From: Ferroglobus placidus DSM 10642
GTDB taxonomy: Archaea; Halobacteriota; Archaeoglobi; Archaeoglobales; Archaeoglobaceae
DNA: 32,000 nt
Direction of reading: 5' to 3'
NCBI RefSeq assembly: GCF_000025505.1
Contig: NC_013849.1
Location: 1,080,001 to 1,112,000 of the forward strand
Every line of letters begins with the position of its first letter. Position 1 is the stretch's first letter. The translations under genes and the position numbers were made by a program. The notes beneath the pieces are model-generated. The model made no database searches. It saw only the letters and a program-made list of their open reading frames with translations, and had not been told where the DNA came from. Shown piece by piece: positions 587-29,204 of this stretch.

Positions 587-1419
587 AATTAATACTGCTT
601 TTTGGTGCACTTATTTTTCTTTTAGCGTCTTTTTTGTTAACGAATTCGGACATTTATTTTGAGGGAGGTACGATCAAAAATCAAATCGGTGAACATTACG
701 GATTAAACGAGATATACGTTCACTACTACTCAGGTTTTTTTAACTTCCTAATTTGTACAACCTCAGCGCTCATAATCGTTATTGCCGAAAGGAGAGCAGA
801 AATAGGAGGTTGGAATTACGTCGCTTCTGGAATATTTTTTAATGGTCTCGTCGGATTTGGCGAGGTTGCAGAGCACTTCTTTAAACCCTTTTTGCACGAC
901 TTCTTCCACTACTTCCACATTTATTCCGGATTTTTTAGCCTACTTCTTCTATACTTGGGAGTAAAACTAATTCTCTCCTCGATAGTTGGAAACAACATTT
1001 CCGAAAGAAAATCGATTATCGCCGCAAGCCTAATACTCCTACTCTTTTTATCTCTCCTAACCTCAGTAAAAACAACCGAAAAGTGGGATCCTCGATTTGA
1101 AATTCCTGTGATGTCAATTCTTTTGATTCCCACAATTCTCCTGACGATCCTTTTAGTTTACGACGCCTACAAAATTTTTCAGGAATCCGGCTTTGTAATG
1201 GTAACTCTAACGTCTTTTGCAGTGTTCGCCATGCTTTTACAGCTCGTAATAATTCTCGGGAGAATTTCGGATATAATGGGAAACGCTTACTTTTACACGA
1301 TAACGCACTCGATACAAGATCTCCTCCACGTAGCCTCTGCAACAAATGCCCTCATATTTGCCGTAACTTTAAACATGACATTTAAAAAGATAAAAAGCGT
1401 CGAAGAGATTATACTTTAA
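583..1419 (+). CDS. Polytopic membrane protein (about 8 TM) with a His-rich helix; function unknown
   Basis: ATGA overlap with the ArsR stop (583-586). There are eight hydrophobic segments. A His cluster reads FGEVAEHFFKPFLHDFFHYFHIY. I recognise no family. Confidence 0.7.
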   Translation: MKLILLFGALIFLLASFLLTNSDIYFEGGTIKNQIGEHYGLNEIYVHYYSGFFNFLICTTSALIIVIAERRAEIGGWNYVASGIFFNGLVGFGEVAEHFFKPFLHDFFHYFHIYSGFFSLLLLYLGVKLILSSIVGNNISERKSIIAASLILLLFLSLLTSVKTTEKWDPRFEIPVMSILLIPTILLTILLVYDAYKIFQESGFVMVTLTSFAVFAMLLQLVIILGRISDIMGNAYFYTITHSIQDLLHVASATNALIFAVTLNMTFKKIKSVEEIIL

Positions 1420-2077
1420 CTTCTTCGAGTAGCTTTTCCAAATTTTCTGCGTCCAACTCCACAAATCTCTTCGTCAGCCTTGCAACTCCGACATAGAAAG
1501 GCTCTTTCGATTCAGCTTCAACAACTTGACAGAATTTTGGTACCCACTGCAATATGTGTTCTCGCAAAAATCTCATCTCCAGTTCCAAAAATTCTCTCGC
1601 TTTTTCAGAATCTTTTCCCCACGCTTCCATTTCCTTGTAGCAAAGGAGTGACATGAACTTCAACTCCACTCCTATGTAATCCTGCGGACCCTCCTCTTCC
1701 TCAATTATTCCAAATCCGGCTTCGCTGTAAAATTTCATAACCGCCAACGTCGTCTCTCCCATAACCCTTTCTTCTCCTCTGTAAACGGATTCGTAAGGCG
1801 GAGGGGGACTGTAACCTTTTTTAATACCCCTGAAGAGCCTCGTAAATTCTACTGCCAGCCTTTCAGATAGATCATCGAGGTCGTCATCAAGGCTACTCTT
1901 AATTAACTCGATCGCATCGGAAAACTCTTCTACATTCTCAGGAAGCTTTTGCTTTAATTCTTTAAGAAACTTCTTATCAGGTTTTTTCAAGTAAAAATCG
2001 CTCAGCAACCAGTAAACCTTACTCCTCATTTCCGCAAGGCTCTTAAGAAAATTCGAGTCCATAAGGTACCGCCCCAA
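1409..2077 (-). CDS. TorD/DmsD/NarJ-family molybdoenzyme maturation chaperone
   Basis: The protein is 222 aa. It has the family-typical E-F-T-R-L-F-R-G motif, an acidic helical composition, and the last position in a molybdopterin oxidoreductase operon. Confidence 0.75.
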   Translation of the reverse strand: MGRYLMDSNFLKSLAEMRSKVYWLLSDFYLKKPDKKFLKELKQKLPENVEEFSDAIELIKSSLDDDLDDLSERLAVEFTRLFRGIKKGYSPPPPYESVYRGEERVMGETTLAVMKFYSEAGFGIIEEEEGPQDYIGVELKFMSLLCYKEMEAWGKDSEKAREFLELEMRFLREHILQWVPKFCQVVEAESKEPFYVGVARLTKRFVELDAENLEKLLEEVKV

Positions 2078-2090
2078 AAATAAAAAAGAG

Positions 2091-2522
2091 TTATTCTGAA
2101 GCTTGCCCGTACCAAGGCGTCGCTATTCCTCCTTCTTTGTGGCAGCCAAGGCAAACTCCTCTGTCAACGACTCCTGGCGCCCCTTCTGGTTTCTTGTACT
2201 TCCTCTCGTAGAGGACGTCTTTGGCGTAATCCGGAATGTGGCAAGCCGTGCAATCTAAGCCAAGAACTTTAGCGTGTATTTTGTGGAATCTCCCCTCCAA
2301 AGTCATGTCGTAGTTGTTGCCAACGTCGATCTCTCCGCTTCTTATTTTTTCAGCTATCTCCTTCAAGCTTGCATATCTTGTCATTTGTTCCGTAGGTGTT
2401 GCTTCGGATGTCGGCGTTTTTTCTGGAGTGGGCGTTTGCTTGACCTCTTTCCCAGTTTGAGCGCATCCGGCAATTACCAATGCGATTGCTAAAAGCATTA
2501 ACGCCAGCAGCTTCATTCTCAT
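2091..2522 (-). CDS. Lipoprotein dihaem c-type cytochrome
   Basis: The signal peptide with lipobox is MRMKLLALMLLAIALVIAG-C20. A Thr/Pro/Glu-rich linker follows (TPTPEKTPTSEATPTEQ). There are two CxxCH motifs (CTACH, CLGCH). Its start overlaps the upstream stop (TGATG). Confidence 0.8.
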   Translation of the reverse strand: MRMKLLALMLLAIALVIAGCAQTGKEVKQTPTPEKTPTSEATPTEQMTRYASLKEIAEKIRSGEIDVGNNYDMTLEGRFHKIHAKVLGLDCTACHIPDYAKDVLYERKYKKPEGAPGVVDRGVCLGCHKEGGIATPWYGQASE

Positions 2523-3208
2523 CAGTAATCACCTCCCTCCAAGACGTAGTAGACTTGAGGTCTCGTTCCGTACTCTTTCTTGAGTTGCGTCGCTTTCTTC
2601 TTCGCTATTATCTTCGAAACCTCGCTGTTCGGATCGTTTATATCTCCAAAGTGCCTCGCTCTAACTGGGCAGACAACGTCGCATGCTGGAGTGTACTCGG
2701 GATCTTTGCCGATTAAGTGAGTTTTTCCCTCTTCAATGGCTTTTTCTATACGGTGCCAGCAGAACGTGCATTTTTCCACTGTATTTTCCTTCTTCCTGTG
2801 AGTCCAGTGCCTGTTCTCGTAGGGAATGTTCTCGTAAGGTGTTTTACCTCTGCCGGGGAAGAGATTCTTAATTTCCTTTATGTACTGGGGAGCTCCGTAA
2901 GGACAGACAGCTATGCAATACTTGCAGCCTATGCACTTTTCGTAGTCGATTAAAACTACACCGTATTCATTTTTCGTTATCGCTCCTACTCCAATAGCAT
3001 CGCAGGCTCTCTTACATGGCGGATCTTCGCAGTGCATGCAGTTCATCGGAACGAATACTCTCCTGACGTTGGGGAACTTACCGACTTCATATTCTATGAC
3101 GAAGTTCCAAGGGTTTCCGGGAACGTAGAAGTTTTCGTTCATGCAAGCTGCGACACAAGCTCTGCAACCAATACACTTTGTCGTGTCGATAACTCTCACG
3201 AGCTTCAT
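2522..3208 (-). CDS. Molybdopterin oxidoreductase 4Fe-4S (four-cluster, DmsB/PsrB/ArrB-type) electron-transfer subunit
   Basis: Four cysteine groups are present: CIGCRACVAAC, CMHCEDPPCKRAC, CIGCKYCIAVCP and CTFCWHR...CDVVCP. The protein is 228 aa with no signal peptide of its own. A GGTGGT SD lies 3 nt upstream of the ATG. Confidence 0.9.
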   Translation of the reverse strand: MKLVRVIDTTKCIGCRACVAACMNENFYVPGNPWNFVIEYEVGKFPNVRRVFVPMNCMHCEDPPCKRACDAIGVGAITKNEYGVVLIDYEKCIGCKYCIAVCPYGAPQYIKEIKNLFPGRGKTPYENIPYENRHWTHRKKENTVEKCTFCWHRIEKAIEEGKTHLIGKDPEYTPACDVVCPVRARHFGDINDPNSEVSKIIAKKKATQLKKEYGTRPQVYYVLEGGDY

Positions 3209-3217
3209 ACTACCACC

Positions 3218-5698
3218 TCACGCCTTGTAAATCCTAACCTTGGTGTCGTTGAAGCTGTTCATCCCCGAAACCATGTCAGGATGGTATTCCAGTATCTTGT
3301 TCACCCAGCTTCCCTTCCTTGCCCATTCCGGATATCCCGGACTCCAGTGACCGTAGTGGTAGGAGATAGCTACAGTGTCGGGACGAATCGCTTCGGTTAC
3401 TCTCGCTATCGCCACGAGTTTCCCGACTCTCGATTCAACCACAACTTTGTCCCCGTCGTCAATTTTCAGCTTTCTTGCAGTTTCTGGGTGAATCCAGACG
3501 TCGTTGTAATCGGAGTCGTGAGATACCTGATTCAAAATCGGATTTACGTTGCAGTAGCCGCTCTGATTTCTGTACATTCTCTTGAACGTTATCAGGTAGA
3601 GCGGGTAGTCTTTCGCTTTCTTATGCGGAGTTGGATAAGCGTGCTCTTTCCTTGGAATAGGTGAAAGCCTTATCTTCACTTCCTCCTCGACATTTTCCGT
3701 TTCGTACCACTCCTCGAAAACCTTCCTTATGTTCTCGTGTTTGTTCATCAACTCGATTACTTTTTCAGCGGAGTGAATCAGCTCCTCGCAGTATAAGTGC
3801 ATCTTCGGTTTGTTAGGACCTTTGAACTTCTCCTCAGCTCCGTGCAAGTACCTCTCTTCCACGCTAACGAACTTTCCGTAGAACCCGTCTCTCATTCCTT
3901 GCTCTATCGGCTGTCCGGTTTTGTTCCTCCAGAGGATGTCGAAAGCGGCTTTTGCGTCATAGTCTTTACCCTTTTCGAACTTCGGATTCTTGAACTTGAA
4001 CTTCTCGTTGATCTTTTCCAAGAACTCGTCGTAGAAGCCAGCTCTTTTCGCAAGTTCAAACATTATCTCAAGGTTCTGGTAGGGTATGTTGAACACGTTG
4101 ACTATCGGATAGTGTAAAGTGTGGTGTCTTGCATGCGGCGTCCATCTTCCGCCGTAGTAGCCGAAAGCTTCGAGGTAGGTTTTGTCTGGAAAGACTACGT
4201 CAGCGTACCAAGCAGTTTCTGTCATCGTTATATCAATCACGACGTTGAAAGTTTTTGCAAGAGCTTCGAACTGCTTTTCCGCATTTGATGTCGAGAAAGG
4301 TCTGTTGGTTGCGAAGAATATCTGCATTTCCGGCTTGTAATCGAAACCGTACTTTTCCGGATCGAGCATGCTGAACATGGCTTGCTGCGCAACATCATGA
4401 GTTGCGTGTGGCAAGAAGACGCTCTTCTTTAAGTCTATCCTGCTCGGCGGGTATTCGCATTTCGAAGGCTTCATGTACTTTTCGCTTCCCGGCTTGTGAA
4501 GCAGGAAGCCACCAACTGCATCTATAGCTCCCACGAGTTGCATTACAATTAAGGCTGCTCTCCAGTTCTGAGTACCATGCTCTTTTGCAGAAAGTCCTCT
4601 GAATGTATAGATTGCCACAGGTCTATATCTCAACTCTTTTCCGTCTATGACAATTGTAGAGCCAATTCTTGCGTTTTCTCCAAACTCTTTAGCAATTCTC
4701 CTTATCTGCTCAGCAGGAACTCCGCACTCTTCAGCGACGCTTTCTGGTGTTATGTCTTTAACGTAGTCCGCAAATACCTGAAATGCCGTTCTGTACTTCT
4801 TTCCATCTATCTCGTATTCTCCTTCGAGAGCCGGGACAACTCCCTCAACGTAGGGCTTTGCTGAGTTGGTTACCGTGTCCCAAACGAGAGGATTGCCGTT
4901 TTCGTCCCTCAAGAACTTGCCGTCTTCACCTACAAGAAATGGAGCGTTCGTGTAGTTTACCAGGAAATCTCTGTCGACGTACCCCTCGCTTATCAGCACG
5001 TTAGCCATCGCAAGCAGAAAGAGAACGTCTTTTCCGGGTCTGATTGGAACCCACTCGTCAGCTTTAGCTGCCAGATTGCTGAGCCTCGGCTCAACAACCA
5101 CGAGCTTCATTCCCCTCTCCTTCGCTTCAATGGTCGCATGGTCAAGCCATCTCGCCCATTGATCAGCTTCGAAGTAGTTTCCACCCATGTTTATCAGGTA
5201 GTTGCAGTATTCCAAGTCTGGCAATGCCCCGTGACCTCCCCATGTTATCTCATCAGCAACGTGCCTTGAAGCCTCACATGTTGTGGTTCTGTGAATCATG
5301 TTCGGCGTGCCGAAAGCTGCAGTAAATGCTTTCATCCACTCGTCGTCAAGCAGATACTTTCCGTGTCCGTGGTGCCATACGAGCTTCCTCGGGTCGCTTT
5401 CCCTTATCTGCTTGAGCTTTTCAGCTACTATGTTAAAAGCCTCTTCCCAGCTTATCTCCACCCAGCCCGGATCCTCGTTCGGTCCTTTCTTAGGATTCGT
5501 TCTCTTCAGAGGTCTCTTAAGCCTGTAAGGGTTGTAGGTGTTCCACATTCCAGATACTCCCTTCGGACAGTTGCCCCAGTTGAAGTATGGTGCTCTCTTC
5601 TCATCCGGATATATCGCCCTAATAACTCCGTTCTGCACCTTCACTTTAATTCCGCAGAAGTTCACGCACATCTTGCAGGTCGATTTGTAGTACTTCAC
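3218..5698 (-). CDS. Molybdopterin (bis-MGD) oxidoreductase catalytic subunit, Psr/Phs/Ttr/Arr-like clade (mature part as called; see the Tat leader feature)
   Basis: The N-terminal FS0 motif is C-x2-C-x3-C-x28-C (CKMCVNFC...NCPKG). A candidate Mo-ligand Cys sits in FGTPNMIHRTTTCEASRH. The C-terminal MGD-binding beta-barrel reads VWIHPETARKLKIDDGDKVVVESRVGKL. The ORF is 826 aa and is called from GTG 5698. Confidence 0.93.
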   Translation of the reverse strand: MKYYKSTCKMCVNFCGIKVKVQNGVIRAIYPDEKRAPYFNWGNCPKGVSGMWNTYNPYRLKRPLKRTNPKKGPNEDPGWVEISWEEAFNIVAEKLKQIRESDPRKLVWHHGHGKYLLDDEWMKAFTAAFGTPNMIHRTTTCEASRHVADEITWGGHGALPDLEYCNYLINMGGNYFEADQWARWLDHATIEAKERGMKLVVVEPRLSNLAAKADEWVPIRPGKDVLFLLAMANVLISEGYVDRDFLVNYTNAPFLVGEDGKFLRDENGNPLVWDTVTNSAKPYVEGVVPALEGEYEIDGKKYRTAFQVFADYVKDITPESVAEECGVPAEQIRRIAKEFGENARIGSTIVIDGKELRYRPVAIYTFRGLSAKEHGTQNWRAALIVMQLVGAIDAVGGFLLHKPGSEKYMKPSKCEYPPSRIDLKKSVFLPHATHDVAQQAMFSMLDPEKYGFDYKPEMQIFFATNRPFSTSNAEKQFEALAKTFNVVIDITMTETAWYADVVFPDKTYLEAFGYYGGRWTPHARHHTLHYPIVNVFNIPYQNLEIMFELAKRAGFYDEFLEKINEKFKFKNPKFEKGKDYDAKAAFDILWRNKTGQPIEQGMRDGFYGKFVSVEERYLHGAEEKFKGPNKPKMHLYCEELIHSAEKVIELMNKHENIRKVFEEWYETENVEEEVKIRLSPIPRKEHAYPTPHKKAKDYPLYLITFKRMYRNQSGYCNVNPILNQVSHDSDYNDVWIHPETARKLKIDDGDKVVVESRVGKLVAIARVTEAIRPDTVAISYHYGHWSPGYPEWARKGSWVNKILEYHPDMVSGMNSFNDTKVRIYKA

Positions 5699-5820
5699 TT
5701 CTCCCTCGTTGAAAGGCTTGGAGCTCTCGACAGCTTTTGCGATCTTCGAGATGTCGGTGAAAACGCCAAAGCGGATAGCGCTCCTATTCCCCTTAAAAAT
5801 TCTCTTCTCGTTACTCCCAC
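5695..5820 (-). other. Twin-arginine (Tat) signal-peptide coding segment, shifted by one frame relative to the catalytic-subunit ORF
   Basis: GTG 5820 gives VGVTRREFLRGIGALSALAFSPTS...REK*, which contains the TRREFLRG Tat consensus and an h-region. The stop TGA 5697-5695 overlaps GTG 5698 of the 826-aa ORF. The 826-aa frame stays open upstream to 5821. Confidence 0.75.
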
Positions 5821-14479: not shown

Positions 14480-14487
14480 TTTATATG
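14480..14487 (+). promoter_or_regulatory. Candidate TATA box for the cytochrome/NrfCD-like operon (a strong SD follows at 14510-14520)
   Basis: TTTATATG lies 44 nt upstream of ATG 14524. GGGGGTGATGG (complementary to the 16S 3' end) lies 3-13 nt upstream of the ATG. Confidence 0.45.
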
Positions 14488-14523
14488 CGAAGTTACATAG
14501 ATATTAATTGGGGGTGATGGGAA

Positions 14524-14817
14524 ATGGCAGACGTAGTTACGTTGTTTGTAATTCTCGGGGTGCTCGGAGGTATAGTTAACTTGCTGCTGGCGTACATTAA
14601 AAAGTGGGAAGTGCTCGGAGTTTTAACCTTAGCGGCTGCATTCCCCATAATCGGCGTTACTCTCCTTGACGCAATATACGGAAACATGGGGTTCTTTGCA
14701 GCAGTAATTGCCTTCGCCGGAATCGTGACGATACTCGTGATGACTGTGGCGGCGCTCAGCATCGCAGGAATACAGGCGATACTCGGAGTCGAAGAGAAGG
14801 AAGAAGTTTCCTCTTAA
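14524..14817 (+). CDS. Small hydrophobic membrane protein (97 aa, 3-4 TM); first gene of the cytochrome operon
   Basis: A strong SD precedes the start. The sequence is Gly/Ala/Ile/Leu/Val-rich (VILGVLGGIVNLLLAY, LTLAAAFPIIGVTLL, FFAAVIAFAGIVTILVMTVAALSIAGI). I recognise no family. Confidence 0.6.
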   Translation: MADVVTLFVILGVLGGIVNLLLAYIKKWEVLGVLTLAAAFPIIGVTLLDAIYGNMGFFAAVIAFAGIVTILVMTVAALSIAGIQAILGVEEKEEVSS

Positions 14818-14844
14818 ATTTTCTAATTTTTTGGAGGTTGATAA

Positions 14845-15309
14845 ATGAAACACGTAACAAGAGCCCTACTTTTGTTTGTCTTTATAGTTCTCGTTTTTAT
14901 CTCTGCTATTTTCACTTTGCGAGCACTGGGAGAAGAATACTACCCCGGGATTCCAGACAGTCTTCTTGGCATCAAAGGACTTTACGGATACGACAGAAAC
15001 GAAAAGGAAATAATTAGAAACGAGCCAGATTTTCTGGGGAAAGAATACTGCAAGAACTGTCACGGGGAAATTTACGAAAAAAGTTTGAAGGGTAAGCACA
15101 ACTTCGAGTGCGAAACCTGTCACGGAGCTGGGAAGGGGCATCCAGATAAGGATTTGAGCGTTGAAAATACGAGAGAATTCTGCCTGAACTGCCACAAGCC
15201 CGTGATAGCGAGACCGGACTTCAGCTTGGTTTACGACTGGGAAACGCATGGATATCCGGATAAGCCTTGTACGGTTTGTCACGACGCCCACTATCCGTGG
15301 TTCGGGTGA
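14845..15309 (+). CDS. Membrane-anchored tetrahaem c-type cytochrome (NrfB-like position in the operon)
   Basis: An N-terminal signal anchor is present (ALLLFVFIVLVFISAIF). There are four CxxCH motifs: CKNCH, CETCH, CLNCH and CTVCH. A GGAGGT SD lies at 14833-14838. Confidence 0.85.
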   Translation: MKHVTRALLLFVFIVLVFISAIFTLRALGEEYYPGIPDSLLGIKGLYGYDRNEKEIIRNEPDFLGKEYCKNCHGEIYEKSLKGKHNFECETCHGAGKGHPDKDLSVENTREFCLNCHKPVIARPDFSLVYDWETHGYPDKPCTVCHDAHYPWFG

Positions 15310-15314
15310 TAAGC

Positions 15315-16022
15315 ATGATTTCCCGAAGGGAGTTTCTGAAGAGCGGGATAAAGCTTGCGATAATTTTAACGTTGCCAGTTTCTTCAGCTAAGAGCGAGAA
15401 GTACGTTTACGTGATAGACTCATCCCGCTGCATAGGTTGTGGAAGCTGCGTTAGAGCTTGCAGAGAGGAGAACAAAGTGCCTGAAGGGAAGTACAGAACG
15501 TGGGTGGAGAGGTACGTTGTTTACATGAACGAGGGGATAGAGGAGGTTTACGTCGAATCTCCAGAAGGGGGAGAGCACGGATTCGAAGATTTGGATTTCA
15601 ACGATAAAGAGGTGCTAAGAGCTTACTTCGTTCCCAAGCTGTGCATGCACTGCGAAAAACCTCCTTGCGTTAAGGTTTGCCCGGTCAACGCAACCTGGCT
15701 AACTGATGACGGTTTCGTTTTAATCGACGAGGATCACTGCATTGGCTGTAAGTACTGCATCCAAGCATGCCCCTACGGAGCGAGGTACTTCCACGAGGAG
15801 AAGCACGTCGTTGATAAGTGCACGTGGTGTTACCACAGAGTTAAGAGAGGAATGAAGCCAGCATGCGTCCACGTTTGCCCGACTAAGGCGAGAATTTTCG
15901 GAAAAATAAGCGACAAGGAGATAGAGGAAAGGCTGAGAGATCCGACGATAAAAATCCTGAAGCCCGAGCTGAACACGAGACCAAAAGTGTTCTACCAGAA
16001 AGTTGGTTGGGAGGTGTGGTAA
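15315..16022 (+). CDS. Tat-dependent 4Fe-4S ferredoxin-type subunit (NrfC/PsrB/HybA-like)
   Basis: I trimmed the start to ATG 15315, which gives MISRREFLKSGIKLAIILTLPVSSA, a Tat motif (SRREFLK) with an h-region. The four Cys groups are CIGCGSCVRAC, CMHCEKPPCVKVCP, CIGCKYCIQACP and CTWCYHR...CVHVCP. Confidence 0.9.
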   Translation: MISRREFLKSGIKLAIILTLPVSSAKSEKYVYVIDSSRCIGCGSCVRACREENKVPEGKYRTWVERYVVYMNEGIEEVYVESPEGGEHGFEDLDFNDKEVLRAYFVPKLCMHCEKPPCVKVCPVNATWLTDDGFVLIDEDHCIGCKYCIQACPYGARYFHEEKHVVDKCTWCYHRVKRGMKPACVHVCPTKARIFGKISDKEIEERLRDPTIKILKPELNTRPKVFYQKVGWEVW

Positions 16023-17198
16023 ATGAGCGAAGCTTTCGGCTACGTTTATCCGAACCACGAGGTCTTCTGGGGAATACTCATCGTAATCTATCCGTACTTC
16101 GTTAGCATAATCACCGGAATGGTTACGATTTACGCTATAAGCGAATTCTGGAGGAAAGAGCTAAAACCTCTGGAGAAAATGATCCTCGTGGGAACTTTTC
16201 CGTTCGTGCTTTCCGCTCTACTTCCTTTGCTTTTAGACCTCGGACAGCCTCAGAGAGCTTTTGAAATCTACGTAACCCCCAATTTCTCCTCGGTGATGGC
16301 AGTTTTCGGTATCGTTTACTTGACGGAGCTGTTCGCCATACTCGGAGAGCTGTGGTTCGTTTACAGAGTTGACTTCATCTGGTGGTCTCAGACTGAGAGA
16401 AATCCGATAAAAAAGTTGATTTACAAAATACTCACCCTCGGAGTTTACGATATAAGCAGGAAAGCGATAGAAGTTGATCACAAAATCATAAAGGTTCTTA
16501 CGTTCGTCGAGCTTATAGCTGCGTGGTGTCTCAGCTACGTTTCGTTCCTCTTCGGAGTTGTTAAGTCAAATCCATGGTGGAACACAACGATTTTACCAGT
16601 CAGTTTCGTCTTCGGAGGATTGGCTGCAGGAGGAGCTATGGTTCTCATACTCTACTTGATATTCTCCAGCCACTACGGAAAGAGAGTGGACGAGAAAATC
16701 ATCGATATAATATCTAACTACGTCTTCTTCTTCCTCCTCGCAGCGTTTGCTTTGGAGATGATCAACACGATTCTCTACGCCTACAAAGAAGACGTCGCAT
16801 GGGCTGTGATTAGAATCACCTCTACCGAGCTTGCAGTCCCAATGGCTATAGCCGTTATCGGCTCCCTCGAAGCTTTGCTCTTCCTCAGGTACTCAAGGAT
16901 GGTTAGCGGAGCTCTCAAACAGATAATGGTCGGCATAGCAAGCGTATCCGTGCTGATAGCAGTTTTCGCTCTGAGATGGAACATGGTAATCGGAGCGCAG
17001 CTTGTGGATTACAGTCTGAGAGGTTACGTCTCCTACACTCCGCCACTCTTCGGAAAAGAGGGAGTCTTAGCGGCACTTCTCGTTTTAGCAGCACCCTTCG
17101 TATTAATGGCAATCGTAAACTACTTCTTACCGCCATACGAAAAAGAGGTTAAGGAAACTGAAATTTCGAGACCGACGACTTCAGTGAGCGAGGCATGA
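16023..17198 (+). CDS. NrfD/PsrC-family integral membrane quinol-interacting subunit
   Basis: The protein is 391 aa with about 8-10 TM. It lies immediately after an NrfC-like subunit (TAA then ATG with no gap). The N-terminal HEVFWGILIVIYPYF segment is typical of the family, as recalled. Confidence 0.8.
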   Translation: MSEAFGYVYPNHEVFWGILIVIYPYFVSIITGMVTIYAISEFWRKELKPLEKMILVGTFPFVLSALLPLLLDLGQPQRAFEIYVTPNFSSVMAVFGIVYLTELFAILGELWFVYRVDFIWWSQTERNPIKKLIYKILTLGVYDISRKAIEVDHKIIKVLTFVELIAAWCLSYVSFLFGVVKSNPWWNTTILPVSFVFGGLAAGGAMVLILYLIFSSHYGKRVDEKIIDIISNYVFFFLLAAFALEMINTILYAYKEDVAWAVIRITSTELAVPMAIAVIGSLEALLFLRYSRMVSGALKQIMVGIASVSVLIAVFALRWNMVIGAQLVDYSLRGYVSYTPPLFGKEGVLAALLVLAAPFVLMAIVNYFLPPYEKEVKETEISRPTTSVSEA

Positions 17199-18229
17199 AG
17201 TGGAAGTGTCCGTTTTGCGGCTACGAAAACGAATCGGAAAAGCTCGTATGCGAGGTATGCGGAAAGCAGTTCAAGTGGAGAAAGGGGAAGCTCGTAGAGG
17301 TTAAAAAACGTCCTCCGGAGTTCTGGATTTCAATTTTTATTTTAACCTTTGCAATAATATTTAACGCAATTTTGATAGGAGTCGAGTACGCAAGCGACCC
17401 AAAGATCTGCACGAGCTGTCACGAGATGGAGAAGTACTTCGAAAGCTGGAACGAATCAACGCATAAGGGAATAAAGTGCTACGAGTGCCACTACGGCAGA
17501 GGAGTTCTGAACTTTTTGCGCGGCACGTATCACTCGCTATCAGTTCTTCAGCCAAAAGTGCCTCCCTACGTTAACCTTCCGGCGAACATTTCCAGCGAAA
17601 ATTGCCTGAGTTGTCATGGAGATATTGAAAAGGTAAAGTACGTACACTACGGAGAGATAAACTTCAGCCACGTCAACCACTTAAACGGCTACAAGAGAGG
17701 TTTTCTAAAGTTGGAGTGCGTGAGCTGTCACAGAGAAATAGTTATCGGCAGCCACATTGCTGTGAAAAATTCCACGTGCTTCGTCTGCCATTTCTACGAA
17801 ACTCCGGAAGGAGTCCCCATTAGCGGCTGTCCCTCATGCCACAACTACCACGATATAGAATTCGTCGTCGGAAACAGAACTTTCAAGCATTCGGTTCACG
17901 TGGAGAGGGGAATAAAGTGCATATTCTGCCACGAGAAGACGTACGTGCTTATAGGAAATATGGAAGTTAAGTGCAAAAAATGCCACGTTAGAGAGATGAA
18001 CGCCACGCTGCCAGACTTAACTATGCACGGCATACACGTCAACAAGTTTAAACTCGATTGCTTGCAGTGCCATCCAGACATCGTGCACAAGCCGATAGTT
18101 AGCGAAGAGAAATGCAAAACGTGCCATCCAGACATAAAATACGAAAAGAAGGAAGAGGAAAAGAAAAAGGAGGAAGAAGGAGTGGTGAAAGAAGAGGAGA
18201 AGGGTGAAGGCGTTACTATAATTCCATGA
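17195..18229 (+). CDS. Zinc-ribbon / TM-anchored decahaem c-type cytochrome with a NapC/NirT/NrfH-like first haem motif
   Basis: ATGA overlap with the nrfD-like stop. The zinc ribbon is CPFC-x13-CEVC, followed by a basic stretch and the TM FWISIFILTFAIIFNAILIGV. The first haem context is CTSCHEMEKYFESWNESTH (NapC/NirT style). There are 10 CxxCH motifs in total. The C-terminal tail is K/E-rich. Confidence 0.9.
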   Translation: MKWKCPFCGYENESEKLVCEVCGKQFKWRKGKLVEVKKRPPEFWISIFILTFAIIFNAILIGVEYASDPKICTSCHEMEKYFESWNESTHKGIKCYECHYGRGVLNFLRGTYHSLSVLQPKVPPYVNLPANISSENCLSCHGDIEKVKYVHYGEINFSHVNHLNGYKRGFLKLECVSCHREIVIGSHIAVKNSTCFVCHFYETPEGVPISGCPSCHNYHDIEFVVGNRTFKHSVHVERGIKCIFCHEKTYVLIGNMEVKCKKCHVREMNATLPDLTMHGIHVNKFKLDCLQCHPDIVHKPIVSEEKCKTCHPDIKYEKKEEEKKKEEEGVVKEEEKGEGVTIIP

Positions 18230-18233
18230 TAAA

Positions 18234-18246
18234 TTTTGATTTTTTT
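18234..18246 (+). terminator. Oligo-T tracts, candidate terminator of the cytochrome operon
   Basis: TTTTGATTTTTTT starts 5 nt after the TGA stop at 18227-18229. Confidence 0.35.
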
Positions 18247-18347: not shown

Positions 18348-19208
18348 ATGATGCTGGAGAAACTTGAAGAGAGAAAAGAGCAACTCGAAAAGGAGCTCCA
18401 AAGTTATATAGCAAAGAGGGACGAGCTAAACAAGTTGTCCAAGGAGTACGCCCAGAAGAGAGACGAACTGAATTCGCAGGTTAGAGAGCTTTTATCTAAG
18501 GTTAGGGAGTTGAAGCAGAAGAGAGACGAGTTCAACAGCAAGGCGAAAGAAATAAGGGCGAAGAGGAAGGAGCTATACAACGAGATAGACAGACTCTACA
18601 AAGAGCTCGACAGAGTAAGGAGAAGCATAGACAAAGGAGGAAGACCTCTGGGAGAAATAGAGAAAGAGATTAGAAGGTTGGAATTCAGGCAGCAGACGGC
18701 TGTTTTAACGATAGAAAGGGAAAGAGCTTTGGTTGAAAGGATTGCCAGATTAAAGAAAGAGCTTGAAGAGAGAAAGCAGCAGCTGGAAAGGCACGAAGAG
18801 TTCAGAAAGCTCATTGCGAAAATTAGAGAACTAAAGGAGGAAGTTAGAAAACTTACCGAGGAAATGAACAGCTACGTAAGCGAAGCAGACAAATACCACG
18901 CTGAGATCGTGGAAATTCTCCAGAAAGTGGAAGAGCTGAGAAAGAATGCCGATGAGATGCACAAGAAGTTCGTGGAAAGCAAGAAGGAAGCTGACAGGTG
19001 TCACGCGGAAGTCGTGAGGATCAGAAAGGACATAAAAGACCTCGACAAAGTCATAAAAGCCTTAAAAGCGAAGCAAGCGAAATCGAAGGAGGATCTGGAG
19101 AGAGAAGAACTTATGAGAAGAGCCAGAGAGATCTACGAGATGTTCAAGAGAGGAGAGAAGATCGAAACTGAGGATTTGTTAATACTTCAGAGAGCAGGAT
19201 TTATTTAA
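18348..19208 (+). CDS. Archaeal coiled-coil protein (COG1340-like)
   Basis: The protein is 286 aa with almost continuous heptad-like K/E/R/L composition. Repeated KRDE-L/F-N-S units are present (AQKRDELNSQVRELLSKVRELKQKRDEFNSKAKEIRAKRKELYNEI). Confidence 0.7.
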   Translation: MMLEKLEERKEQLEKELQSYIAKRDELNKLSKEYAQKRDELNSQVRELLSKVRELKQKRDEFNSKAKEIRAKRKELYNEIDRLYKELDRVRRSIDKGGRPLGEIEKEIRRLEFRQQTAVLTIERERALVERIARLKKELEERKQQLERHEEFRKLIAKIRELKEEVRKLTEEMNSYVSEADKYHAEIVEILQKVEELRKNADEMHKKFVESKKEADRCHAEVVRIRKDIKDLDKVIKALKAKQAKSKEDLEREELMRRAREIYEMFKRGEKIETEDLLILQRAGFI

Positions 19209-28253: not shown

Positions 28254-29204
28254 ATGGGTGTAAGGATTAAACTTAGAAGAGTCGTACAGCTCTCGTTCTT
28301 TTTGTTCTCGATTTACACTTGGTGGAGGTTCTACCTTTTCGTCAAGCATTTTGATGAGGGAACCGAATTCGTTCCCCGCCCCGTTTCCATAGAGGCTTAC
28401 CTTCCGATTGGTGGGCTCGTTTCGATAAAAAACACGCTGCTCAACGGATACATCGATCCCATCCACCCGGCGGCAATGGTCATTCTCTCCGCAATCATAG
28501 TTTCGGCTATATTTCTTAAAAGAGGATTTTGCGGCTGGATATGTCCGGTTGGAACGCTATCCGAAGCTGTCTCGTTTGTAGGAGAGAAGATTCTTCCCCG
28601 AATACGAGTTCCAGAGTTCGTAAAAGTGATAAAGTACGGTCTCATGGCTTTCTTTTTACTTACGGTTTTGATGATGGACAGATACGAAGTCGCTGCCTTC
28701 CTTCAAACGCCCTACTGGGCAATTGCTGATGTTAAACTTCTGGACTTCTGGTTGAATCCGGGAACGCTGACGATAATCGTGACTTCGCTAATAGTTCTCC
28801 TAACCCTTTTTACGAGAAACCTCTGGTGTCGGTACCTGTGTCCTTACGGAGCATTTTTAGCAATTTTCTCTTTCCTTTCAGCATTCAAAATAAGGAAAAC
28901 CAACTGCGTAAATTGTAAAGCCTGCGATAACGTTTGTCCAGCGGGAATCAAGATTAGCGAGAAAAAAGAAGTTAGCTCCCCCGAGTGCATCGCCTGTTAC
29001 GATTGCATAGAGGTTTGCAAAACTAAAGGCTTGTACATGGACTTCCTCGACAAACGGGTGAGAAAAGAGGTTTACGTGGCTGTTTTGCTTGCGATATTAT
29101 TCGGATTCGTTATTGTAGCAAAAGTTACTGGAAACTGGGACTCGGCGTTAACTTACGAGGACTACGAGAGGTTGATGAAGATCAGGAAGTTTGTAACGCA
29201 CTGA
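28254..29204 (+). CDS. NapH/MauN/NosR-type membrane-bound polyferredoxin (4Fe-4S binding protein)
   Basis: The TM-flanking CxxCP motifs are FCGWICPVGT and WCRYLCPYGA. The C-terminal ferredoxin motifs are CVNCKACDNVCP and CIACYDCIEVC. Confidence 0.8.
   Translation: MGVRIKLRRVVQLSFFLFSIYTWWRFYLFVKHFDEGTEFVPRPVSIEAYLPIGGLVSIKNTLLNGYIDPIHPAAMVILSAIIVSAIFLKRGFCGWICPVGTLSEAVSFVGEKILPRIRVPEFVKVIKYGLMAFFLLTVLMMDRYEVAAFLQTPYWAIADVKLLDFWLNPGTLTIIVTSLIVLLTLFTRNLWCRYLCPYGAFLAIFSFLSAFKIRKTNCVNCKACDNVCPAGIKISEKKEVSSPECIACYDCIEVCKTKGLYMDFLDKRVRKEVYVAVLLAILFGFVIVAKVTGNWDSALTYEDYERLMKIRKFVTH

Follow-up and report, generated by a model that had tools for sequence, protein, structure and literature searches.

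We analysed a 32,000-nucleotide stretch of the genome of the archaeon Ferroglobus placidus DSM 10642 (contig NC_013849.1, positions 1,080,001 to 1,112,000), hereafter the window, in which five co-oriented open reading frames (ORFs) occupy positions 14524-18229 of the + strand. They encode a small membrane protein, a tetrahaem cytochrome c, an iron-sulphur (Fe-S) protein with a twin-arginine translocation (Tat) signal, a membrane subunit of the NrfD family and a decahaem cytochrome. A first-pass annotation of the DNA had described the same five genes together with promoter, ribosome-binding and terminator signals; ORF coordinates and Pfam matches agree with it and the three signals are found where it had placed them. 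The features of the operon are listed below.

14480-14487, + strand: TATA-box-like element TTTATATG, 44 nt 5' of the ORF1 ATG, in a 225-bp AT-rich intergenic region
14510-14520, + strand: Shine-Dalgarno-like sequence GGGGGTGATGG, including GGTGAT, 4 nt before the ORF1 ATG at 14524
14524-14817, + strand: ORF1 (deduced tag Ferp_1266), 97 aa, membrane protein
14845-15309, + strand: ORF2 (deduced tag Ferp_1267), 154 aa, tetrahaem cytochrome c with an N-terminal signal anchor
15315-16022, + strand: ORF3 (deduced tag Ferp_1268), 235 aa, Tat-exported protein of NrfC/PsrB type with four [4Fe-4S] clusters
16023-17198, + strand: ORF4 (deduced tag Ferp_1269, ADC65423.1), 391 aa, NrfD-family membrane subunit of ActC type
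17195-18229, + strand: ORF5 (Ferp_1270, ADC65424.1), 344 aa, decahaem cytochrome with a zinc ribbon and one transmembrane helix
18234-18246, + strand: oligo-T tract TTTTGATTTTTTT, candidate archaeal terminator, 5 nt past the stop codon (TGA 18227-18229)

The position of TTTATATG is compatible with an archaeal promoter followed by a short leader. The first-pass annotation had called the gene junctions tight. This holds for ORF3/ORF4, where stop and start codons abut (TAAATG, 16020-16025), and for ORF4/ORF5, which overlap at ATGA (17195-17198), while gaps of 27 nt and 5 nt separate ORF1 from ORF2 and ORF2 from ORF3. ORF3 has its own Shine-Dalgarno sequence, GGGTGAT, and its start is the ATG in gene calls on independent assemblies, with an earlier TTG at 15267 also possible. 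Judged by this spacing, the five genes may well be co-transcribed from one promoter. Since six other loci of the Archaeoglobi repeat the five genes in identical order, the arrangement is not due to chance.

The 391-aa and 344-aa products match exactly ADC65423.1 (ORF4) and ADC65424.1 (ORF5) of F. placidus DSM 10642, which are annotated on record as "Polysulphide reductase NrfD" and "NapC/NirT cytochrome c domain protein" respectively. In a published table, a 12-haem cytochrome of Methanoperedens has Ferp_1270 as its best homologue in F. placidus, with 34% identity over 90% of the protein (PMC4683180). The homologue of that 12-haem cytochrome in ANME2D is ANME2D_00604, which by tag order appears to be the 12-haem ORF5 homologue found in our survey (PMC4683180). 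Because of this table and this correspondence we identify ORF5 with Ferp_1270, and consecutive numbering and accessions would then make ORF1 to ORF4 Ferp_1266-1269.

ORF4 is a clear member of the NrfD family (Pfam PF03916, 6.7e-29, 101.9 bits against a cut-off of 25.8) that scores far below the NrfD equivalog model TIGR03148 (37.5 against a cut-off of 347.6). When the single sequence was searched against the PDB no useful match was obtained. A 12-sequence profile matched ActC of three structures of alternative complex III (ACIII) over the full length (6f0k_C 2.5e-8, 8k9e_C 3.3e-6), and PsrC was unmatched in the PDB by this profile at E <= 1. An AlphaFold2 (AF2) model built from a 35-sequence alignment is all-helical, with a predicted local distance difference test (pLDDT) score of 80.9 and a predicted template modelling score (pTM) of 0.85. 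Its top three Foldseek matches are the ActC chains 8k9e_C, 6lod_C and 6btm_C, with template modelling (TM) scores of 0.72-0.73; ActF (about 0.52) and PsrC (TMq 0.39, TMt 0.55) rank lower.

Two positions of ActC, His139 and Ser164, have been singled out as common to quinone-reactive NrfD-like subunits (Calisto and Pereira 2021, PMC8076601). In the HMMER alignment ORF4 S90, invariant in 35 sequences, aligns with Ser164, and D72 aligns with His139, a position at which Methanoperedens and the second-cluster (paralogous) copies carry His. ORF4 thus has the conserved serine of the quinone site (Q-site) and an acid on transmembrane helix 2 where an acid or His is expected. We regard it as a candidate ActC-type NrfD subunit with a menaquinol site formed around a D72/S90 pocket.

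ORF3 begins with the twin-arginine sequence MISRREFLK and has 16 Cys in four ferredoxin-type groups (Pfam Fer4_11, 1.8e-28). Pfam finds Fe-S domains only along its 235 aa. Among solved structures the best match is PsrB (2vpw_B, 1e-45), followed by ArrB (4.7e-33) and ActB (1e-17); scores are well under the cut-offs of the NrfC equivalog TIGR03149 (151.4 against 377.6) and of the QrcC model (98.9 bits, 3.4e-28, against 400).

ORF2 has four CxxCH motifs and a single hydrophobic segment at residues 1-31. Its four non-motif histidines H85, H99, H135 and H149 are invariant in 11 family members and therefore fit four bis-His haems. Likeness to known cytochromes is generic only (the N-terminal domain of octahaem nitrite reductase, MccA, c554 and MtrA). 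The "NrfB-like" label of the first-pass annotation could not be upheld for this protein, which carries four haems rather than five and is anchored, reaches 20.6 bits with the NrfB equivalog TIGR03146 (cut-off 166.6) and matches NrfB in the PDB (2ozy) at E = 0.013.

ORF1 contains no Cys or His and has about three hydrophobic, probably transmembrane, segments; a Pfam scan gave no match. It heads the cluster in all seven other Archaeoglobi loci compared, with 14 invariant residues, and is a candidate for a conserved small membrane subunit or assembly factor.

The 344 aa of ORF5 hold exactly ten CxxCH motifs and one transmembrane segment (residues 41-67). Residues 48-105 match the Pfam NapC/NirT family (PF03264, 2.9e-12, 47.1 bits against a cut-off of 24.1). 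A profile searched against the PDB finds NrfH (2j7a_C, 7e-10) over residues 52-106, which cover the transmembrane helix and haems 1-2, and ActA (6lod_A 2e-8, 8k9e_A 1e-7, 6f0k_A 3e-6) over residues 218-314. The NCBIfam NrfH model TIGR03153 aligns with residues 47-182 at 49.5 bits, below its cut-off of 134.2. Haem 1 is bound by CTSCHEM, an NrfH-type CxxCHxM motif whose methionine, M78, is invariant in 13 sequences, and the same alignment has nine invariant non-motif histidines for ten haems. This combination fits a quinol-reactive, high-spin haem 1 that would have no distal His. On its sequence, ORF5 is an NrfH-like head (haems 1-4) joined to an ActA/c7-like tail and preceded by a cytoplasmic zinc ribbon, and is itself a candidate quinol dehydrogenase of NapC/NirT/NrfH type. 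With ORF4 beside it, the operon therefore has two possible entry points for quinol electrons.

The zinc ribbon (CPFC...CEVC) occupies residues 1-32 (window 17195-17290); Pfam zinc-ribbon matches to it are weak and below cut-offs, and there is a resemblance to the Sulfolobus ArnA zinc finger (5a8i_A, E = 0.0017). It precedes a positively charged stretch and the transmembrane helix and would thus face the cytoplasm. It is present in 10/10 Archaeoglobi orthologues of ORF5 and was found neither in two relatives of 31-34% identity (P0011, P0012) nor in the Methanoperedens copies examined. At the other end of the protein (window 18140-18226) lies a Lys/Glu-rich low-complexity tail, KKEEEKKKEEEGVVKEEEKGEG, that is seen in Ferroglobus copies only; other ORF5 orthologues stop shortly past the tenth haem motif.

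To place the operon among its relatives we surveyed homologues with phmmer and synteny in one genome per species, covering 30+ loci. Close relatives of ORF5 are few, with 12 matches at E <= 1e-5 in 5.8 billion proteins. They belong to Ferroglobus, Geoglobus, the JdFR lineages and relatives at 31-34% identity, and more distant homologues occur in Ca. Methanoperedens and diverse bacteria. The six other Archaeoglobi loci that keep the same five genes in the same order are those of a Ferroglobus metagenome-assembled genome (MAG), a 79%-identical MAG, two JdFR-37-type MAGs and two Geoglobus MAGs, and their decahaem proteins are 47-96% identical to ORF5. Between the NrfD gene and the decahaem gene there is an overlap of 4 nt in those Ferroglobus and Geoglobus loci that have the order of the window, and one of 23 nt in JdFR-37 as called. 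JdFR-42 has a rearranged order (small protein, NrfD, Fe-S, 4-haem, 10-haem, 12-haem).

The genes that flank orthologous operons differ from one to the next and are unrelated housekeeping genes. In G. acetivorans, for example, the five-gene unit sits amid housekeeping genes that have nothing in common with the F. placidus flanks. No molybdopterin or catalytic haem subunit was found within 8-10 kb of the orthologous operons of G. acetivorans, Geoglobus MAGs, JdFR-37, JdFR-42 and the Methanoperedens clusters, as far as contig ends permit (several contigs are short). Likewise, no NrfA-like gene was found in the operon, among the window ORFs scanned or in the orthologous loci. An orthologous operon standing next to a catalytic subunit, which as a constant pattern would have spoken for a partner encoded just outside the window, was thus not seen in any locus compared.

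Some of these loci hold additional cytochrome genes. A 12-haem cytochrome gene follows the decahaem gene in JdFR-37, JdFR-42 and Geoglobus UBA235 (L006 4696-5574; L007 3983-4855; L009 9175-10032; L008 5173-8616), and Geoglobus UBA235 has a full second 4-haem/Fe-S/NrfD/12-haem cluster 1.4 kb downstream. Neither an extra 12-haem gene nor a second cluster is present at the F. placidus operon locus. In JdFR-42 (L086 / L087 12751-19123) the rearranged cluster directly adjoins both another 4-haem/Fe-S/NrfD set and a Rieske/cytochrome b cluster that includes two more cytochromes of c type, making the neighbourhood an island of three putative quinol:cytochrome c oxidoreductases.

The operon was compared with known systems. 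Closest are the clusters of the Fe(III)-respiring genus Geoglobus, G. acetivorans GACE_1341-1344 and G. ahangari GAH_01253-01256, which have the same genes in the same order (decahaem 61%, NrfD 72-73% identity). They differ in their flanking genes, and the published tag ranges comprise four genes, with the small first gene apparently outside them. Ca. Methanoperedens (ANME2D_00599-00604, by tag order) has homologues of the 4-haem, Tat Fe-S, NrfD and NapC-like proteins at 31-37% identity in the same core order and likewise with no catalytic subunit. The M. nitroreducens cluster reads 5-haem, 4-haem (first site CX4CH), Tat Fe-S, NrfD, 5-haem and NapC-like 12-haem. Methanoperedens clusters thus differ in having two extra pentahaem cytochromes with C-terminal anchors and a NapC-like cytochrome that lacks the zinc ribbon and binds 12 haems; a small protein like ORF1 was not seen in them, and the Q-site position on transmembrane helix 2 is His, not Asp. 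With its co-located homologous NrfD-like, 4Fe-4S and multihaem cytochrome genes, the F. placidus operon belongs with the archaeal menaquinone (MK):cytochrome c oxidoreductase clusters of Archaeoglobi and Methanoperedenaceae.

A similar architecture is that of Cbc4 (CbcSTU) of Geobacter sulfurreducens, for which a role as quinol:cytochrome c oxidoreductase in extracellular electron transfer has been proposed (bioRxiv 10.1101/2025.04.14.648717). Cbc4 has an anchored tetrahaem cytochrome, a 4x[4Fe-4S] protein and an integral membrane subunit, as in ORF2-ORF4, and no catalytic subunit. It differs in having no decahaem NapC-like partner and no ORF1, and its NapC/NirT-like haem core lies in the tetrahaem CbcS, in which all haems are bis-His, whereas the operon has its NrfH-like CxxCHxM signature in the decahaem protein. 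The comparison with Cbc4 is one of architecture: no Geobacter protein was found among the few source-named proteins in the 94 ORF2-family matches (5.8 billion proteins) and in the 120 listed of 329 NrfD matches, most matches carrying no name.

ACIII (ActABCDEF), which works as a menaquinol:cytochrome c oxidoreductase, has counterparts of three of the proteins. Both the sequence and the fold of ORF4 are nearest to ActC, while ORF5 resembles the pentahaem ActA in its C-terminal third and ORF3 resembles the Fe-S half of ActB. The molybdopterin-fold B1 domain, the second NrfD-like subunit ActF, ActD and ActE are absent from the operon, which has one NrfD gene only and no monohaem or ActD-like gene. 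It encodes 14 haems against six in ACIII, and ORF3 is nearer to PsrB (1e-45) than to ActB (1e-17).

With NrfH, CymA and NapC, ORF5 shares a transmembrane helix with the N-terminus inside, the CxxCHxM haem 1 and the match to PF03264. Unlike NrfH (about 140-160 aa) it has ten haems rather than four, an N-terminal zinc ribbon, a score below the NrfH equivalog cut-off and partners of NrfC/NrfD type rather than NrfA. NrfBCD of E. coli type likewise combines an NrfC-family Fe-S protein that carries a Tat signal with a membrane subunit of the NrfD family and a small cytochrome with several haems, but all three corresponding subunits of the operon fall far under the Nrf equivalog cut-offs, ORF2 has four haems and an anchor where NrfB is a soluble pentahaem protein, and there is no NrfA. 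Qrc (QrcABCD) differs in that the operon has no molybdopterin-fold gene and ORF3 is under the cut-off of the QrcC model. Because defining subunits are missing or score below cut-offs, the operon is not a strict member of the Nrf, ACIII or Qrc systems.

Taken together, the genes present, their cofactor motifs and topology signals, and the evidence of homology, fold and synteny point to electron transfer out of the quinol pool. We think it fairly probable that the operon encodes a menaquinol:cytochrome c oxidoreductase that draws respiratory electrons from this pool and delivers them at the outer side of the cytoplasmic membrane, where other multihaem cytochromes would take them over and carry them on to Fe(III). 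We read the operon in this way because of its parts, its export signals (the Tat leader of ORF3 and the signal anchors of ORF2 and ORF5) and its closest solved relatives. The first-pass annotation had likewise proposed a quinol:cytochrome export module with no catalytic subunit of its own, a proposal that synteny, the likeness to ActC, ActA and NrfH and the literature now support. How the proteins would physically assemble, in which direction electrons would flow, which cytochromes would be the partners and whether protons would be pumped are deduced from these observations. As to the direction, quinol oxidation is suggested because Geoglobus species, which are obligate Fe(III) reducers, retain the operon (PMC4600277) and because Ferp_1267 has been linked to Fe(III) reduction in a passage of PMC13104607.

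In the mechanism that we envisage, menaquinol would be oxidised at an outer-side pocket of the ActC-type ORF4, with release of the protons outside. Electrons would enter the four clusters of ORF3, which would be exported by the Tat system and docked on ORF4, and would pass onward to the anchored tetrahaem ORF2 and the anchored decahaem ORF5, 14 haems in total. The NrfH/CymA-type hallmarks of ORF5 may offer a second, direct entry for quinol electrons. Ten haems alone probably do not cross the S-layer, so that other large cytochromes would be needed.

This role is not new. It is already known at the level of genomic inference, has been proposed for Fe(III) respiration since 2015 and does not define a new kind of system. 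F. placidus is said, in a passage of PMC13104607 citing Smith 2015, to encode three putative Cbc4-like menaquinol:ferricytochrome c oxidoreductases, and in a summary of Smith 2015 the same source lists Ferp_1267 among three multihaem cytochromes called 'essential for Fe(III) reduction' on a proteomic and transcriptomic basis. The cluster gace_1341-1344 is one of four proposed for Fe(III) reduction, according to a statement in PMC4683180 that cites Mardanov 2015, and GAH_01256 has been called a decahaem NapC/NirT quinol dehydrogenase (PMC4600277, PMC8280799). Manzella 2015 and Leu 2020 are named among earlier proposers of the same role for orthologues or relatives. The Methanoperedens NrfD/Fe-S/multihaem clusters have been named MK:cytochrome c oxidoreductases and are expressed when methane is oxidised with Mn(IV) (PMC7327174, PMC7082337). 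The paper on the F. placidus genome makes no mention of the cluster (PMC3236036). For archaea that lack an outer membrane, the operon ranks with the leading published candidates for the initial step by which electrons leave the quinol pool on their way to insoluble Fe(III). What we add here should ease tests of that role, namely an ActC-type NrfD with a D72/S90 pocket, a decahaem fusion of an NrfH head and an ActA tail, and a conserved fifth small subunit.

Several points weigh against assigning the operon to menaquinol oxidation for Fe(III) respiration. In every archaeon that carries the complex its function has been deduced from genomes, and the expression support for the operon reaches us second-hand, through a passage that summarises the original study. 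The tags are assigned indirectly, ORF1 to ORF4 having been equated with Ferp_1266-1269 by way of Ferp_1270 and the consecutive accessions (PMC4683180). The ORF4 pocket matches two of the four ActC quinol-site residues, with Asp169 replaced by F95 and Asp253 by Leu. The AF2 model of ORF5, from the 13-sequence alignment, is poor overall (pLDDT 57, pTM 0.41) and confident only at the zinc ribbon and the transmembrane helix. Homologues of ORF5 that lack neighbouring NrfD and Fe-S genes exist among bacteria (15-20 haems, about 510-780 aa) and as second Methanoperedens copies, so its assembly with NrfCD-type proteins is not obligatory. Finally, good expression of the homologues in Methanoperedens is seen under nitrate reduction too (PMC4683180), and for this reason the module may not be specific to Fe(III).

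The window does contain one catalytic subunit. The first-pass annotation had stated that none is encoded, which is correct for the operon and incorrect for the window, where a molybdopterin (Mo) cluster lies at 1409-5820 on the - strand, 8.8 kb upstream of the operon, on the opposite strand and with eight unrelated genes between. Its genes are listed below.

3218-5698, - strand: PhsA/ArrA-like molybdopterin A subunit, 826 aa
2522-3208, - strand: Fe-S B subunit
2091-2522, - strand: dihaem cytochrome c, 143 aa, with a lipoprotein-like leader
1409-2077, - strand: TorD-type chaperone

No NrfD-type anchor was seen in the cluster at 1409-5820. The ORF of the Mo subunit has no Tat signal, and a perfect leader, GVTRREFLRGIGALSALAF, which starts with the GTG at 5820, is read in a different frame. 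At the TTTT run 5760-5763 a shift of one base parts this leader from the mature domain (window 5695-5820, - strand), and the TGA of the leader ORF overlaps the GTG start at 5698. Logan SRR3923786, a sequencing run that was assembled separately and has DNA matching the window, shows the identical sequence at the frameshift, which could mark a pseudogene, a gene split in two or a site of recoding. None of the orthologous operons was found to have a Mo-subunit homologue near it. As the missing catalytic partner of the operon, the Mo enzyme at 3218-5698 was ranked low on account of distance, strand, the frameshifted Tat leader and its absence beside orthologous operons. Besides this cluster, the first-pass annotation had passed over the zinc ribbon of ORF5 and the candidacy of ORF5 as a NapC/NirT/NrfH-type quinol dehydrogenase.

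Alternative readings divide the operon, redirect its output or reverse it. The five genes could encode two co-transcribed machines, with ORF1-4 forming a Cbc4-like NrfD/Fe-S/tetrahaem quinol oxidase and ORF5 acting independently as a CymA/ImcH-like quinol dehydrogenase, both exporting electrons by parallel routes that are perhaps tuned to acceptor potential as in Geobacter. The transmembrane anchor and NrfH-type haem 1 motif of ORF5 would equip it for such independence, its homologues in bacteria and the second Methanoperedens copies do without NrfD/Fe-S neighbours, and several parallel quinol oxidases are known in Geobacter (PMC13591261). The overlap of the NrfD and decahaem genes, 4 nt here and 23 nt in JdFR-37, suggests coupled synthesis instead, and the C-terminal part of ORF5 resembles ActA, a subunit that docks on the ActB/ActC core of ACIII. 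We hold two separate machines to be rather unlikely. At the opposite extreme all five proteins would form one hybrid complex with two different menaquinol sites (the ActC-type NrfD pocket working through four Fe-S clusters and, chemically distinct from it, an NrfH-type high-spin haem at the surface of the membrane), a common 14-haem output and the Archaeoglobi-specific zinc ribbon as a regulatory or assembly handle. If true, this would be a respiratory architecture unlike any solved system, in which energy conservation could be matched to acceptor potential inside one complex; we would give it a slightly smaller chance still.

The operon might instead serve as a hub, a quinol dehydrogenase of general use that would mainly supply a soluble reductase facing outward and encoded at another locus, such as the Mo enzyme at 1409-5820 or the F. 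placidus reductases of nitrogen oxides. CymA of Shewanella, a NapC/NirT cytochrome, passes electrons to soluble ArrAB and to many further reductases. The Mo cluster encodes A and Fe-S B subunits together with a dihaem cytochrome c and a chaperone of TorD type, with no NrfD-type anchor seen, and the nitrate-linked expression in Methanoperedens (PMC4683180) would suit a hub as well. Set against this are the distance, opposite strand and eight intervening genes that separate cluster and operon, the frameshifted Tat leader that recurs in a separate assembly, the lack of Mo-subunit homologues near orthologous operons and the retention of the operon in Geoglobus, which respires only Fe(III) (PMC4600277), and we consider such a hub improbable. 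It is harder yet to credit that the operon runs in reverse, as a Qrc-like cytochrome c:menaquinone oxidoreductase that, while F. placidus oxidises Fe(II) with nitrate, would pass the electrons gained from Fe(II) outside the cell to the quinone pool. F. placidus came into culture as an organism that oxidises Fe(II) anaerobically (PMC8280799), Qrc is described in a passage of PMC13059093 as a cytochrome/Fe-S/NrfD complex able to reduce menaquinone, and ORF3 matches the QrcC model (3.4e-28), though far below its cut-off. The operon has no QrcB-like molybdopterin-fold subunit, however, and it is kept by the obligately Fe(III)-reducing Geoglobus (PMC4600277), while Ferp_1267 is tied to Fe(III) reduction in the work cited in the passage of PMC13104607. 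Transfer from Fe(II) to menaquinone would moreover be uphill and would need an input of energy. Reverse operation is accordingly the reading to which we attach the least weight.

A few minor observations concern other genes. In Ca. Methanoperedens (L029 6897-10920) a second pair of 5-haem and NapC-like 12-haem genes, with no NrfD/Fe-S genes near, converges on genes for a cytochrome-b-like membrane protein and a multihaem cytochrome; the NapC-like cytochrome may pair with different membrane modules. In the window, an ArsR/HTH_5-type regulator gene (200-586, + strand) is followed at 583-1419 by a gene for a 278-aa His-rich membrane protein with about six transmembrane segments and no family match. 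The pair (200-1419, + strand) converges on the chaperone gene of the Mo cluster and could be the regulator and the anchor of that cluster. Directly 3' of the operon, 18348-19208 (+ strand) encodes a DUF7121 coiled-coil protein that is syntenic only in two Ferroglobus-like MAGs and is probably unrelated. Further along, 28254-29204 (+ strand) encodes a NapH/MauN-like ferredoxin-type membrane protein (NCBIfam TIGR02163, 4.8e-27, below cut-off) that, with no obvious partner near, is another possible quinol-linked electron-transfer protein.

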